From Hormiphora californensis (lineage: Eukaryota; Animalia; Ctenophora): 64,000 nucleotides of DNA. Positions within the stretch are counted from its first letter, which is position 1. Every line of letters begins with the position of its first letter. This document shows positions 8,489 to 64,000 of the stretch, piece by piece. Made by a program: the position numbers and the translations under genes. The notes below the pieces were generated by a model that was not told the DNA's origin, did not search any database, and saw only the letters and a list, made by a program, of their open reading frames with translations. Where the stretch lies: the NCBI GenBank assembly GCA_020137815.1, contig CM035352.1:6634001-6698000 (forward strand), written 5' to 3'.

Positions 8489-16610
<8,122 letters not shown>

Positions 16611-57692: not shown

Positions 57693-58131
57693 ACCAAGTT
57701 ACCAATCGTCACGCATTGTCAAAAGTTACATTTCTGGGATACATTGTGATATTTGATACTTTTACTTGTATTAGGTCATGGAACAACAACAACAACAACA
57801 ACAAAATGGATTTATATACCGACTAAATAGACAAGTACTCTCGATTGGTTCGAAGAGCAATTGCCATTCATAGCGGTTCTCTCATCCTATCTTGACATAT
57901 TGGTTGACAAAAGGTCGTAAATGGTAACTCATACTGGTGACTTATAACTGACATATATAGTAGACTTTATTAACTCTCAACACTTGGTGACTGTGGGTGA
58001 CAAGTATAATCAGAAAAAAATAATAACAAAAATGATAAACTGAATAGTATCTTAGATTATAAAGAATTATGTGACAGCAGCAGGGGTGACCGTGTGAGAA
58101 CGGGGACTAATGAATAACCGAAAAGAAATTA

Positions 58132-61100
58132 TTAAAGACTGATGTCGAAAACCAAATAAGGTCTTTCAGAGAAGGTAACAGTAGCATCGAACAGGTAGGT
58201 CTTCAGGCGAATACGGAAGGAGTCCTCTGAAGGTGCGTCTCTGAGGTTCTCCGGTAGGTTGTTCCAGACATGGGGGAGATATTGGGATATTCTCCTTTTT
58301 CCCAGTTTGCTCACTTTCACATTTCCAGAAAGTAGCTTTAACTTGTAATGGTCTACTTTACAGCTCTGACGAGTAGACTTCTGCACTGCAGTATTTTCAT
58401 CATGTTCCACTAGATCCTGAAGGTACTGAGGGGCACTTCCATAATAGATCTTGTACCCTAGTAGACAGATTTTGAAAAATATCCTCTTCTCAATCGTAAG
58501 GATATGGGAATCACGGTAGAAGGGGTCCAGATCAACTTTCCTCTCTCTGACTCCATGGATGTACCTTATTACTTGATTCATTAGTCCTTTCAGCGGCTTG
58601 ATGGTAGAGGCCGGTAGGTTGAAATACAGAGCATTGCAATAGTCCACTTTGGATATGACCAGCTGGGAGGCAAGCATCAGACGTAGAGGTTTATCAATGA
58701 ATCGGCGGATCTGCCAGAGGTTCCTCATAGTAACTCCAGCATTCCTCTTGACCATGGAGATTTGACGTTTCATATCCATTTGTTCATCAAGATAGACACC
58801 AAGGGTCTATCCCGATTTTCCAGCCATGTCCATGGGGGAAATGATGTTCCCATTTAGCTCAAGAGTCAGGTCACTCTCCTCGCGTACAATATCCATCTTC
58901 TTCTTCTTTCCCAGGATAAGAAACTCAGTTTTATCCTCATTAACCATCAGTCTGTTTTCAATCATCCACGTTCTTACCTCCTCCAAACATTTCTCAATAG
59001 TCTCCTTTGAACCTGTCCAGCCTTCCACAGGGCAGAATCCGATGTATATAGTGCTATCATCTGCATAAAGTCGTATTGTGAGTCCATACTTCTTTACAAT
59101 AGGTTCTAGTGGTTCCACATACAGGGCAAAGAGGACAGGACCAAGGAGAGAGCCTTGGGGTACTCCATATTTGAGAAAGAGCCTAGGTGAGAGGGCATCT
59201 CCAATTTTAACTTTATAGCTCCTGTCATTGAGATAGCTAGTGAACCATTCGAGTACCGTTGATCCAATTCCAAACCGCTTCTCCAGTCTCTTCAAAAGCT
59301 GAGGGTGGTCAATGGTATCAAATGCAGCCGAAAGATCAATTTGAACGACTGCCACAACATTTCCTCTGTCCATTTCCCCAAGGACATCATCAACGACTCG
59401 CACCATATGTGTCTCACAACTGTGGTTGGGGCGAAAACCAGATTGGCATTCACCTCGCAGGTCGTTTTTCTCCAAATGTTCATTTAGCTGTATATTAACA
59501 GCTTTCTCCGCTAGCTTGGACAGAACACTGAGATTCGAGACTGGTCTGTAGTTCGCAAGAGAGTCCACATCTCCAGATGTATTCTTGATTGTGGGCCTCA
59601 CAATAGCCTCTTTCAGTCCTGACGGGAATACACCACTCTGTAAAGAAGTGTTCACGATTTCGGTAAGCACTGGTAGTAGAGTCGGGAGAAGCTGCTTCAG
59701 CAGAGAGGTCGGGATAGGGTCTAAGTCACAGAACTTATCCGGCAGGCTCTTTACAAGGCTTGCCACTTCATCTTCAGTCATAAGACTGAAGGTCTCAAAT
59801 CTTTCTGTCTCTCCTTTAAAAGCACCGGACTCCGTTGATTTCTTTTCACCCAACTCTTCAATCTTGTCACCAATCTTCTTCTGTAGTTTATCAATCTTGG
59901 ACTTGAAAAACTCTCCAAACTCAGTTGCTAGTTTCTCCGGGTTGACCATATCTGGGAGGATAACATTGGAGTTACCCAGTAGCTTGCTCAGTTGTTGGTT
60001 GAGCCTCTTTTGATCGCGTCCACAGAGTTCAATATTTCTTCTGGTGTATTCTGACCGTTTTCTGACCTCCATCTTGTTGAAAGCTGACCTTAGTTCCACA
60101 TACATGGCCCTTAGCTGCGGCTTCTCTTTTGTCTTGTCTTTTCTCCACTTTCTCTCAGCACGCCGCTTCTTCCTCCGGAGGGTTAGCAGCTCTTCATCCA
60201 TCCATGGTGTATACTTCTCTTTCTTCCTTCTCTTCTTCATTGGACAGTGCTTATCAACCAGGGCTAGCAACGTTCCATATAACTTCTCAACAAGGCTATT
60301 AACATCCTCTTCATCAGCAGGTGAGGTAAACAGTCCACTGGCCTTTAGATCCTCATTAAAACTCTCCACATCCACCTTCGAAAAGTCCCGATACCAAATT
60401 GTCTCCGGCCGTTTCCTCTTACTGATCCTCGCAGTCAGTTGTAGGTCCACAGTAATAAGATGGTGGTCTGAAGTAGTTCCCTCCTCCAAGATCCTAACTG
60501 GTTCAAGACAATCTGCTACTGTAGCATCCATCAGGGCTAGGTCCAGAGTACCTCCATGTCTGTGTGTTGATATCAAGGGAACCATCTGTTTGAAGTCAAA
60601 CTCCTCGATCATCTCCAGCTTTTTTGGATAAAATTCATCAGGCCTTTCCATGTGAAAGTTGAAGTCTCCCATGATTAATGGTGTCCCGACTTTACAGTTT
60701 AGTTCCTCAAGGTATCCCTTGAATTCATCCAGGAAGTGGCTCTGGGTATGAGGTGCCTTCTTCGAGTACGGTGGCCTATAGATGTTTACTAGCCGGTACA
60801 TCTCACTAGCATTTCCAATAGTAGTCTCTGTACACTCAAAGGTCTTGAAACACTTGGTAGGTCCAGATTTAACACCCAGGTCCGCTCTGTATACCATTGC
60901 TACTCCACCACCAATCCTCTGCTTCCTCGGTGCCGAGTGGATTTCCCATCCTCTTTCCTTTATCTCATGATGTTTAGCATTGTCACCTTTCCTCAGGTAG
61001 GTCTCTTGAAGAAGACAGATATCAACAAGCTCGTCCTCAAGGTGTTCCAGTACACCAGCAGTCTTATTGACAAGGGAGTTGCAGTTCAATGTTCCAACTC

Positions 61101-61164
61101 TTAGTGAGTTCTCCTTCTTTCCAAGAAGTCTCGTGCCTTCCGACTGTACTCGTTTTTTAACATC
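58132..61164 (-). CDS. LINE ORF2 (APE endonuclease + reverse transcriptase), one in-frame TAG at 58807-58809
   Basis: LNCNSL, LQET, IYRPP, MGDFN, TLDL, SDHH; CQSGFR, DLSAAFDTIDH, GVPQGS, YADD; ORFs 58807-61089 and 58132-58779 share a frame. Confidence 0.93.
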
Positions 61165-62315
61165 TCAGCTCCGGCTGTTCTACTCATCAATCTCTCCTTC
61201 TCCATGATAAAGAAGGGACATTGGAAACTGTTCGCTGTGTGGGTGGTGGCATTGAGCTGATCGATCTTGCTTCGGCTACTCTTGCAGTTTGCACAGCATC
61301 TGGAGTCAACTTTTCTATCCTTCTTCACTTGACAATCCTTGAACCGATGATTTCCAGCACAGTAGGTACAAACTGGATCACCGCTGTCTCTCCTGGGGCA
61401 CATCACTGAGTCTGATTTGTGACCATAGCGTTGACACTTGAAACATTGAACGATATGGAATCGATCCTTCACAATGTGGATTTGAAAATCAAGGTTAATT
61501 CTGTCATTCCTTTTGCGAACAATCTCCCGTATCTTTTTTGACATCTGGACAACTGCATATCGATCCTCCTTATGAAGAAAGATGACTTTCAGTTCCTCTT
61601 GGTGACTTTCAACCTGCTCTTTGATTTCCTCATTTTTCCTCAGTATTTCACTGTACACTTCCTCGGCAGTGGTAATTTCTCCAGCAATGTCTGAGATTGT
61701 AACTTTGGGATTGAGCTTCTTGGTGGTCAGAGTGGCTGTTGAAGTATCAAATTCAGATTTGAGCAGTTCTTCAGCTTTGTCTCGTTGAGACTTGTCCTTG
61801 AAAACTAGATTGGTATCCTCTTCATTCGAGCTGGTTCCATCAACTGGGATTGACTGCAGAGTCTTTCGTACCTTCGCCTTTACAACTTTCCACTTTTCCA
61901 GTCCAACTTTCTCAAGTTTGAGGGTGTGCTTCTGTGGTGTCTTCTTAGGGCTGGGGTTGAGCAACTTTCCAGTATCATCAGTCTTCTCCTTGCCGTTTAT
62001 CGCCTTCTGTATCATGTCTGGTATGTTTGCAAAACACTCCCGCATAGCCTCAAGCTCCTTGAGAACCTGTTCAGACCTATCCTGTCCCACTACTGCTCCT
62101 TCTTCTGACTTGGTCTTCACAAGGTCTTCCTGCTGCTTGTCCACCATTCTCAATAGGTTAATAGCAAAATTCCATAGAATATCTTTAGTGATACCCGCTG
62201 GGGGAGCTTTTTTACCTTGCAAGATTGGGTCCATATCCACAGGTAGATTATCTTTCATAAACGTGTCCAAATCTTTCCTCGTCCATAACTTTAGCGGGAT
62301 TGCCTTCAATGTCAT
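61101..62315 (-). CDS. LINE ORF1 with three zinc knuckles
   Basis: QCFKCQRYGH..C, CTYCAGNH...C, CANC...H.A....C. Confidence 0.9.
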   Translation of the reverse strand: MTLKAIPLKLWTRKDLDTFMKDNLPVDMDPILQGKKAPPAGITKDILWNFAINLLRMVDKQQEDLVKTKSEEGAVVGQDRSEQVLKELEAMRECFANIPDMIQKAINGKEKTDDTGKLLNPSPKKTPQKHTLKLEKVGLEKWKVVKAKVRKTLQSIPVDGTSSNEEDTNLVFKDKSQRDKAEELLKSEFDTSTATLTTKKLNPKVTISDIAGEITTAEEVYSEILRKNEEIKEQVESHQEELKVIFLHKEDRYAVVQMSKKIREIVRKRNDRINLDFQIHIVKDRFHIVQCFKCQRYGHKSDSVMCPRRDSGDPVCTYCAGNHRFKDCQVKKDRKVDSRCCANCKSSRSKIDQLNATTHTANSFQCPFFIMEKERLMSRTAGAEMLKNEYSRKARDFLERRRTH

Positions 62316-62528
62316 CACTAGCTACGATCTGCAGGATAAATTCAAGGCCTCGCCTAACGACAACTAGTGTCAATCCTCCGGGTCAGATCCGGTTTTCTCT
62401 TGTCTTAGGCCTTGTCTTTCTCACACAGAAACTGTTACCAGTCTCTGATAAACCCAGAAAAGACAAAACAGAAAAGTATAAAGAGCCGAATATATACCAA
62501 AGAACTTAGCGAATTGGAAAAACGAAAC

Positions 62529-62593: not shown

Positions 62594-63409
62594 TCAACTC
62601 AAATTACTCAAAAATGTACGCTCTAAAAATGAATCTAAATCACCTAAACCTTCTGGAGTAGACTCTAACGCGGCGATAGTTCGTGTTTTCCCTAATCTGT
62701 AAACTGAGTAGTCTCTGACCACACCGTTCAGCCGGTCCTGTTTAATTGTCTCCTTGACAAGTTTCCTAAGAATAAGTTCACACTGGTGTTTCAGATTCTC
62801 CCTACACTTGAGTCTGTCTGCTTCCCGCTCCTTCTCCTTCTCTCCCGGGTCTACCTCAGCAGGTTGAATAAGGAGATAGTGTAGAAACTCACGGGCACTT
62901 TTCAAGCGAGCACTGGTAGTTGAGTCACTGAACGAGTTGATGGGTTCTAATTTTAAAACATGTTTCTCCCATTGTTCTGAAGGAGGCTCCATGGCAACTG
63001 AAACGCGATGAATGGTTTCCATGGTGACCAAAGGGTTGTCACGTGATAAGTTGGCCTTACATGCAGCCTCAACTGACCCTGGAAAGTGAATCTGAGCAAA
63101 CACACAGCCACACCGCTGAGCTAAATGAAACACCTCTTTCCGCATTCCTCTAAGATGGAAAGTGTCATCTAATAGTAAAACAAGATCCCCTTTTGTACTT
63201 TTAATTACCTCAGCAACATGCTCCAGGACCTTTTTCCTGGCAGTATTCCAGCCATTCGGGTCTTTATCCATATCAACCCTACCAATTATTTCATCGTAAC
63301 AAATTACAGAAATTGAAAGTTTAGAAGATTCATCCTGTTGTAGTTTGTGTGCGAGAGTGCTCTTACCAACCGCTGGAATTCCAACGAAGCAGACCAAAAC
63401 TTTTGTCAT
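62594..63409 (-). CDS. PSTK: L-seryl-tRNA(Sec) kinase, intronless
   Basis: P-loop GIPAVGKST; LLDDTFHLRGMRKEVFHLA..FAQIHF; MEPP..WEK; ADRLKC..N..H..E..LRK. Confidence 0.87.
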   Translation of the reverse strand: MTKVLVCFVGIPAVGKSTLAHKLQQDESSKLSISVICYDEIIGRVDMDKDPNGWNTARKKVLEHVAEVIKSTKGDLVLLLDDTFHLRGMRKEVFHLAQRCGCVFAQIHFPGSVEAACKANLSRDNPLVTMETIHRVSVAMEPPSEQWEKHVLKLEPINSFSDSTTSARLKSAREFLHYLLIQPAEVDPGEKEKEREADRLKCRENLKHQCELILRKLVKETIKQDRLNGVVRDYSVYRLGKTRTIAALESTPEGLGDLDSFLERTFLSNLS

Positions 63410-63482
63410 GACGTCATCATCGTGAGAGCTAAAATTGGAAACCCACAATAAGTTACAAGAAACAATAAATACATAATTTAAA

Positions 63483-64000
63483 TCATTTCAATGCCACAAG
63501 TGCCTGGTTACGAGGAGAAATCAGGGGATCAAACACTGCCTTCAACTCAGCTTTGTGCCCTCTTTCTAAGAGGTACAACAACCTATCCGCCAGAATAAGA
63601 TGCTCGCCTGCTAACCCAAGACACAACTTGAAAGTGTAAAAGAAATAATAAACCCACGTTTCCCAATTGTCTTCACTTGCAACACTCTCAGCATGCTGCT
63701 CTTCCTCGTTAGTCAAAGTAGAGTAACTGAATAATGTTAAATTTCGATTTATAAACTCAACAACTGTCTCATTCTCACGTGCCTTTTTAAAACAAACCCT
63801 CTGTCCTGTGTCCCCTGTCCTGACCCTCAAGCTGATCTCACCAACTGACCGCCAATGTTGGTTCAAAACCATTTTGGGGTTGCTTAGTTGGGCCAGTATT
63901 CGCTGTAGGTAAACCTCAATGTTATGGCAGGCCTGCTCTCTTATAGGCAGGGAGAGTGAGTGATCCCTGGATTTAAGATGATCACTAATCGGGTAGCCCT
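63483..64000 (-). CDS. METTL25B: METTL25B/RRNAD1-like methyltransferase, C-terminal part (runs off the window)
   Basis: GYPIS, REQACH.IE.Y, EHLILADRLLYLLE, FDPLISPRN.ALVALK. Confidence 0.8.
   Translation of the reverse strand, partial: GYPISDHLKSRDHSLSLPIREQACHNIEVYLQRILAQLSNPKMVLNQHWRSVGEISLRVRTGDTGQRVCFKKARENETVVEFINRNLTLFSYSTLTNEEEQHAESVASEDNWETWVYYFFYTFKLCLGLAGEHLILADRLLYLLERGHKAELKAVFDPLISPRNQALVALK

Follow-up and report, generated by a model that had tools for sequence, protein, structure and literature searches.

Overlapping reading frames in a ctenophore LINE

The 64,000 nucleotides (nt) of Hormiphora californensis DNA analysed here (contig CM035352.1 of assembly GCA_020137815.1, positions 6,634,001 to 6,698,000; hereafter the window) carry a near full-length long interspersed nuclear element (LINE), that is, a retrotransposon without long terminal repeats (non-LTR), on the minus strand at 57784..62520. 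Its extent was drawn from the open reading frames (ORFs), the Pfam matches to an APE endonuclease and a reverse transcriptase, and the sequence of both ends, with the 5' limit being approximate. ORF1 (61101..62315, minus strand) encodes 404 amino acids (aa) and closes with the TAA at 61103-61101; close to the C-terminus of its product are three CCHC zinc knuckles, followed by ...SRTAGAEML-KN-EYSRKARDFLERRRTH. The ORF2 frame (58132..61164, minus strand) encodes the endonuclease at approximately 61095-60463 (residues 24-234, Exo_endo_phos, E 1.1e-09) and the reverse transcriptase at approximately 59559-58915 (residues 536-750, RVT_1, E 1.1e-30), which is the arrangement of an APE-type LINE with its N-terminal endonuclease.

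The two frames overlap by 64 nt (61101..61164, minus strand), ORF2 lying in the -1 frame relative to ORF1 and opening after a TGA (61165..61167, minus strand). The heptamer A_AAA_AAC (61152..61158, minus strand) follows that TGA after 6 nt and is in phase with ORF1, as is read directly from the codons TTA AAA AAC (Leu-Lys-Asn). The same heptamer serves as the slippery site of gag-pro in mouse mammary tumour virus (MMTV). Past Lys-Asn, ORF1 runs on for a tail of 16 residues, and the overlap read in the -1 frame gives a predicted linker, RVQSEGTRLLGKKENSL, ahead of the endonuclease domain. No AUG is present in ORF2 ahead of the endonuclease motif: the first Met is residue 90 of the open frame, 36 residues past the QET glutamate, behind the conserved N and QET and inside the Exo_endo_phos match. 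Overlap, heptamer and missing AUG had all been pointed out in an initial annotation of this stretch, made from its letters alone, and each was found as described. That annotation had gone on to propose a retrovirus-style -1 frameshift joining ORF1 and ORF2, a proposal for which the comparative evidence given below argues.

We consider it probable, going by the sequence and its relatives, that ORF2 with its endonuclease and reverse transcriptase is translated through a -1 ribosomal frameshift at A_AAA_AAC, the product being a Gag-Pol-like fusion of ORF1 and ORF2. A ribosome holding tRNA-Lys on AAA and tRNA-Asn on AAC would slip one base back onto A_AAA_AAA, and reading would resume with CGA GTA CAG... 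to yield ...EMLKN-RVQSEGTRLLGKKENSL-RVGTLN..., in which a 17-residue linker leads into the endonuclease domain. The predicted transframe peptide is thus ...EMLKN|RVQSEGTR..., and in intact copies the fusion would measure about 1370 aa. The majority of ribosomes would stay in the zero frame and terminate at the ORF1 stop 16 codons further on. Slippage is probably of low efficiency, since no stimulatory structure was found in the window element or in its relative L080 (see below), and infrequent slippage would match the modest amount of ORF2 protein (ORF2p) required relative to the ORF1 protein (ORF1p).

Taken by itself, the heptamer is weak evidence and not significant; significance comes only from the relatives. 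The ORFs of the element contain five in-phase X_XXY_YYZ heptamers in 1418 codons, and the chance of at least one such heptamer in an overlap of 21 codons is 0.06-0.08. The sense strand is rich in A (35% A in ORF1). There is nothing remarkable in a -1 frame that stays open for 21 codons.

A constrained Lys-Asn site in the ORF1 superfamily

A word search with ORF1 returned 11 homologues, and the three knuckles, of the form C-x2-C-x(n)-H-x(n)-C, are invariant in an alignment of ten ORF1s (A4). The profile built from these ten sequences was compared with 1.84 billion representative proteins, giving 9462 matches at E <=0.001 and 4236 at E <=1e-10. The set used below comprises 149 of the best 150 matches, all of them cluster representatives at <=50% identity, with the 271-aa fragment P0127 omitted.

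In 108 of these 149 representatives the dipeptide Lys-Asn occurs 14-30 residues past the last knuckle cysteine, against a background of 445 in 3032 random 17-residue windows of the same proteins (14.7%). Its distance from the last knuckle is narrowly distributed, 92 of 115 Lys-Asn sites having an offset of 18-21. The length of the tail that follows Lys-Asn ranges from 0 to 20 residues (0 in 22 representatives, 1 in 15, 16 in 20). If it does not matter what the zero frame encodes after a slip site, such freedom is to be expected.

The residue in front of Lys-Asn follows a codon rule. Eight amino acids lack a codon ending in A, which a heptamer beginning with A would demand, and none of them precedes Lys-Asn in 106 representatives (counted after the mis-anchored rows P0237 and P0258 were dropped), whereas they make up 164 of 530 residues (31%) at positions -2 to -6 (Fisher p 9e-16). 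The residues found are S (52), A (15), P (15), E (7), Q (6), T, I, L and others; Asp, Asn and His never occur.

Residues with NCN codons (Ser, Ala, Pro or Thr) stand in front of Lys-Asn in 86 of the 106 representatives. On this ground the conserved word may be the longer C-A_AAA_AAC, with a possible context effect of the ribosomal E site.

Among representatives without Lys-Asn, Leu-Asn forms the end of five, preceded by N, P, N, N or Y, residues that can each be encoded by a codon ending in U; one more ends in Gln-Gly-Asn. Lys-Asn, Leu-Asn and Gly-Asn are the dipeptides permitted by X_XXA_AAC, being encoded by A_AAA_AAC, U_UUA_AAC and G_GGA_AAC, respectively.

Slippery heptamers in the DNA of distant relatives

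The DNA of more distant relatives was sought among 118 LINE loci, 80 of them from a metagenome scan (mostly distant LINEs) and 38 from a scan of genome_contigs, to which a hidden Markov model (HMM) of ORF1 was applied. The HMM found this type of ORF1 in two loci only, L048 and L080. Family-specific scans of viral_contigs and genome_contigs for the DNA of relatives at 45-70% identity gave no match.

The junction of L080 reads ...GAG TCA AAA AAC TAT TAA, with an in-phase A_AAA_AAC at 1358-1364 and an overlap of 16 nt. A TGA in the -1 frame stands 3 nt before the heptamer, a layout like that of the window element, and ORF2, which is broken once, has no ATG before the endonuclease domain. Lys-Asn is encoded as NNA AAA AAC in both the window element and L080. 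In L048 the in-phase heptamer is T_TTA_AAC (751-757), located within an overlap of 67 nt and followed after 6-9 nt by a GC-rich hairpin of 8-11 base pairs (767-784, extendable; z -2.25, matched by 4 of 200 shuffles). Its ORF2 is intact, with 967 aa and, again, no ATG before the endonuclease domain. The probability of an in-phase heptamer by chance is 0.085 for L048 and 0.021 for L080, or about 0.002 jointly. Conservation of the heptamer across relatives, which the initial annotation had named as a check, was thus borne out as far as we pursued it, in the position of Lys-Asn, the rule on codons ending in A and the two DNA loci.

The 38 entries from genome_contigs (L081-L118), filed under bacterial and archaeal metagenome-assembled genomes and isolates, encode relatives of animal-type LINE ORF2s. 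Contamination of these assemblies with eukaryotic DNA is their likely source.

ORF1 tails and ORF2 starts in close relatives

In relatives at 66-70% identity the ORF1 tail ...SRTAGAExL-KN-EYSxKARDFLxRRRTH is nearly unchanged, and KNEY is retained at 31-38% identity. Downstream of the heptamer, 38 close ORF1 tails show six replacements, for which the single-base changes were deduced from the proteins through the codons of the window element. In the ORF2 frame five of the six (R>L, R>Q, E>A, E>G and R>K) would be silent and the remaining one (T>A) would not, which hints that the ORF2 frame may already be translated upstream of the ORF1 stop.

A word search with ORF2 gave 214 relatives, of which the best 120 were listed. 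For the 53 closest, ORF2 starts were called within the endonuclease domain in 35, at its boundary codon in nine and upstream of the domain in nine; so far as these calls go, no ORF2 start codon is conserved. The initial annotation had held that an in-frame ORF2 AUG in other copies would speak against frameshifting; by the called starts of these 53 relatives it is not a conserved feature.

N-termini of the type 'MRxGTFN' were considered as proof of an ORF2 AUG and rejected, as the proteins from ENA and Logan print M for any called start. Thus P0133 begins with M where the otherwise identical JGI protein P0132 has L, the M being printed for a non-Met start. GTG and TTG are also callable as starts at a TGA overlap. 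The relatives at 66-70% identity end in Thr-His-stop, from which we infer that the ORF2-frame codon across their stop can only be YTR and cannot be ATG; the 'M' of P0002 ('MRVGT...') must accordingly stand for a TTG that the gene finder took as the start.

The DNA runs that contain the stretch come from two organisms or from marine metagenomes. Two observations were made on contigs of one of these organisms (organism B) that carry closely related copies. Their differences from the window in ORF1 (61230-61520) fall almost only at third codon positions, a pattern indicating that ORF1 is under purifying selection and hence that the family would be active. The stretch 61040-61220 and the 5' part of ORF2 are far less diverged in these contigs than ORF1 at 61230-61520, and this uneven divergence suggests modular or mosaic subfamilies.

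Weighing the frameshift against other routes to ORF2

Much of what marks a frameshift signal is present in the window element: a heptamer in phase, an open -1 frame that leads into an ORF without a start and has the zero-frame stop downstream, and a site conserved in position and phase. A stimulatory structure 5-9 nt downstream, as found in L048, is missing from it, and this is one of several observations that weigh against frameshifting. When four stretches of 62-144 nt following the heptamer were folded, their z values were +0.22, -0.03, -0.14 and -0.26 (200 shuffles each), no better than shuffled sequence, in agreement with the weak stems that were all the initial annotation had seen there. 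A search against Rfam gave no family match, the only hit being a sub-threshold snoRNA match (E 1). Pairing of the 57 nt behind the heptamer with the 3' untranslated region (UTR) was calculated at -27.4 kcal/mol versus a shuffle mean of -28.9 (z +0.45), was equalled by 201 of 300 shuffles and by 24 of 73 further segments of the element, and was rejected for the window element as not above chance. These negatives cover folds, Rfam and pairing with the 3' UTR, no dedicated search tool for pseudoknots having been applied. In L080, too, no downstream structure was found (z -0.53 and +1.53). The lack of structure from which we expect a low efficiency therefore also weakens the case.

Other points on the same side concern the comparative evidence. 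At the DNA level it consists of three loci, and the window was chosen for having the heptamer. None of the permitted dipeptides occurs in 27 of the 149 representatives, among them a subfamily with ...DF... at the site, so that the site is not universal. Lys-Asn after a position rich in Ser, Ala and Pro could be a protein motif, and AAA and AAG are indistinguishable from protein. A start can be called at the domain boundary in nine of the 53 ORF2 relatives, and P0025 (from JGI, a source that keeps the literal first residue) starts with a true Met 12 codons before that boundary. A naturally fused in-frame ORF1-ORF2 protein was not found among longer proteins, which is weak evidence. In four DNA runs over near-identical copies, no difference was listed for 61091-61220 (five rows are not shown, and one organism-B contig over 61121-61220 has two unlisted differences); a junction that hardly varies among such copies is uninformative for or against.

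The chief rival is termination followed by reinitiation, in which a ribosome that has terminated at the TAA at 61103-61101 would resume translation with no AUG, or from a near-cognate codon (for example the TTG at 61089-61087, at the very beginning of the endonuclease domain), the heptamer then being incidental or Lys-Asn a motif of ORF1p. The ORF1 stop does adjoin the first endonuclease codon, 20 of 122 family members, with identities as low as about 31%, share the spacing of 16 residues, and the nine boundary starts are callable ATG, GTG or TTG exactly at the boundary codon. Reinitiation would also fit the lack of a frameshift-stimulating structure, and it is the LINE route described as studied in the available text of the reviews PMC2881922 and PMC3894237. 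Yet there is no AUG at the stop (CAC TAA GAG, with CTA as the codon across it) and no ATG within 69 codons downstream; the relatives at 66-70% identity ending in Thr-His-stop allow only YTR there, and L080 has no ATG between its ORF1 stop and the endonuclease domain. Most ORF1s of the family end 0-10 residues past Lys-Asn, away from the domain boundary. Reinitiation moreover leaves unexplained the rule on codons ending in A, the Leu-Asn variants that correspond to U_UUA_AAC and those replacements ahead of the ORF1 stop that leave the ORF2-frame protein unchanged; we regard it as unlikely.

A C-terminal protein motif of ORF1p, with heptamers arising as a by-product of A-rich codon use and ORF2 being reached by internal entry or non-AUG initiation, appears to us improbable. 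Most of the evidence for conservation is indeed at the level of protein, the sense strand is as A-rich as stated above, and the dominance of Ser, Ala and Pro before Lys-Asn may be a structural preference. But such a motif would hardly form the last two residues in 22 members and stand 16-20 residues from the end in others; it would not bar Asp, Asn and His while admitting Glu and Gln, nor be swapped only for Leu-Asn or Gly-Asn with matching preceding residues, and both DNA loci with Lys-Asn (the window and L080) use the codons NNA AAA AAC. A change at the RNA level could also bring ORF2 into frame, either by an extra A in the A6 run through polymerase slippage or by splicing out of a 50-nt GT..AG stretch (approximately 61149-61100). 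The heptamer does contain a run of six A, and a ctenophore gene model, P0146 (747 aa, in the 90% cluster of ORF1), reads ...LKNE|VGTLN..., skipping exactly that stretch with the frame restored. The same model, however, skips most of ORF2 and has an odd end, as ab initio models over repeats do. The TTTAAAC of L048 is not a homopolymer, and the same holds for the Leu-Asn members; L080 has an overlap of 16 nt and no GT donor between heptamer and ORF1 stop; and splicing would leave the rule for the residue before Lys-Asn unexplained. We judge a change of this kind highly improbable.

The -1 frameshift at A_AAA_AAC remains the reading we favour for the window element. A broader and more tentative proposition, possible but in our estimate somewhat short of an even chance, is that the heptamer (A_AAA_AAC with its variants U_UUA_AAC and G_GGA_AAC) is a general ancestral device throughout the zinc-knuckle branch of animal LINEs (those with a type I ORF1), in which fusion would usually proceed without a stimulatory structure; frameshifting, not reinitiation, would then be the way in which LINEs other than L1 most often obtain ORF2p.

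The window copy and its surroundings

ORF2 of the window copy is interrupted by a single in-frame TAG (58809-58807); the pieces on either side (61164-58807 and 58806-58132) share one frame, with no frameshift between them, and P0132 and P0133 (986 aa, 94% identical) read through the position of the TAG. With this stop, the copy cannot make full-length ORF2p. It is otherwise intact, a young and recently dead insertion. The 3' UTR and the microsatellite tail (TTG)7 take up 57784..58131 (minus strand), the tail itself lying at 57804-57784; a tail of this kind presumably fits CR1/L2-like elements better than Jockey elements, which end in poly(A). The closest named relative of ORF2 bears only an automatic 'X-element' label, and a gene model in the 90% cluster of ORF1 is assigned by its source to the ctenophore Pleurobrachia bachei. 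ORF1 matched no Pfam family at E <=0.01. Type I ORF1s, composed of an RRM and CCHC knuckles, belong to the Jockey/CR1/L2 group as defined in PMC4120745.

Directly upstream of the LINE is a long host ORF (62597-63487, minus strand) with a KTI12/AAA_33 match (P-loop kinase-like, E 2e-11), whose stop codon the LINE closely follows. Elsewhere in the window, resemblance to the element was confined to 337 nt at 9419-9755, 64% identical to its reverse transcriptase part and in the opposite orientation, probably an old fragment of a related LINE.

Known systems and implications

How ORF2 is translated from a bicistronic LINE RNA is an old open question that, to our knowledge, has been studied in two elements only, human L1 and silkworm SART1, both pointing to reinitiation. 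Older papers reportedly deal with overlapping LINE ORFs in R1Bm, jockey and mosquito elements. The -1 slippery signal is itself known; in the LINE class of elements it is not established.

In retroviruses and LTR retrotransposons the gag-pro/pol junction has the same components as the one described here, namely an X_XXY_YYZ heptamer at the 3' end of a zinc-knuckle ORF, a polymerase ORF without a start in the -1 frame and a fusion made, by prediction in our case, as a minority product. The window element differs from retroviral sites in being a non-LTR LINE that encodes an APE endonuclease but lacks a protease, in having no stable hairpin 5-9 nt downstream in the folds, and in being known here from its sequence. 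Nearer in kind are the Dictyostelium TRE elements, stated to need a -1 frameshift in the accessible part of PMC5911963. TRE5-A and TRE3-A are also APE-type non-LTR elements with ORF1 and ORF2 in a -1 arrangement and differ in host (an amoeba), clade and ORF1.

Translation of ORF2 depends on that of ORF1 both in SART1, a silkworm LINE of the R1 clade with a UAAUG junction, and in human L1, according to the available parts of PMC3894237 and PMC2881922. SART1 shares with the window element an ORF1 with three knuckles and a bicistronic LINE RNA. In SART1 and L1 termination and reinitiation give separate proteins, whereas the window element has no AUG at or near its ORF1 stop and a conserved heptamer upstream of it. 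Peptides of the 2A type, which cause 'ribosome skipping', are described at the N-terminus of LINE ORF2 in portions of PMC3894237 and PMC3708506; they, too, are a recoding device that sets the output of ORF2p, acting at the level of the peptide within one ORF, and no such motif is present in the window element. In the metagenome set, the distant LINE L018 carries at 139-162 a 2A-type motif, ...LLLSGDIELNPGP (ending in DIELNPGP), directly before its endonuclease domain.

As far as the accessible texts extend, the reviews of LINE translation (PMC3894237, PMC2881922) cover reinitiation in SART1 and L1 as well as 2A peptides and do not mention frameshifting, and a review of recoding (PMC5009743) includes only HeT-A and TART among non-LTR elements. 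Frameshifting into ORF2 is likewise absent from the parts of PMC13343379, PMC2861651 and PMC11203168 that were available, the last two also being silent on overlapping ORFs and slippery sites, and the corresponding part of PMC1947958 speaks only of unrelated frameshifts in PCR clones. In the portions of text covered by a full-text literature search, which did not extend to older subscription papers, a conserved slippery heptamer at the junction of LINE ORF1 and ORF2 was nowhere described; PMC5911963 came nearest.

If the -1 frameshift holds for a large LINE branch, such as that represented by the 4236 profile matches at E <=1e-10, many LINEs would use the retroviral Gag-Pol solution. For annotation this would give a simple rule, by which ORF2s without an AUG are read through NNA AAA AAC in the -1 frame. 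The ratio of ORF1p to ORF2p would be set by the efficiency of slippage, and the predicted ORF1-ORF2 fusion protein would bear on cis-preference and on the assembly of the ribonucleoprotein particle (RNP). Should the heptamer prove to be the ancestral device of the zinc-knuckle branch, the LINE RNPs of that branch would be built like the Gag/Gag-Pol particles of retroviruses.

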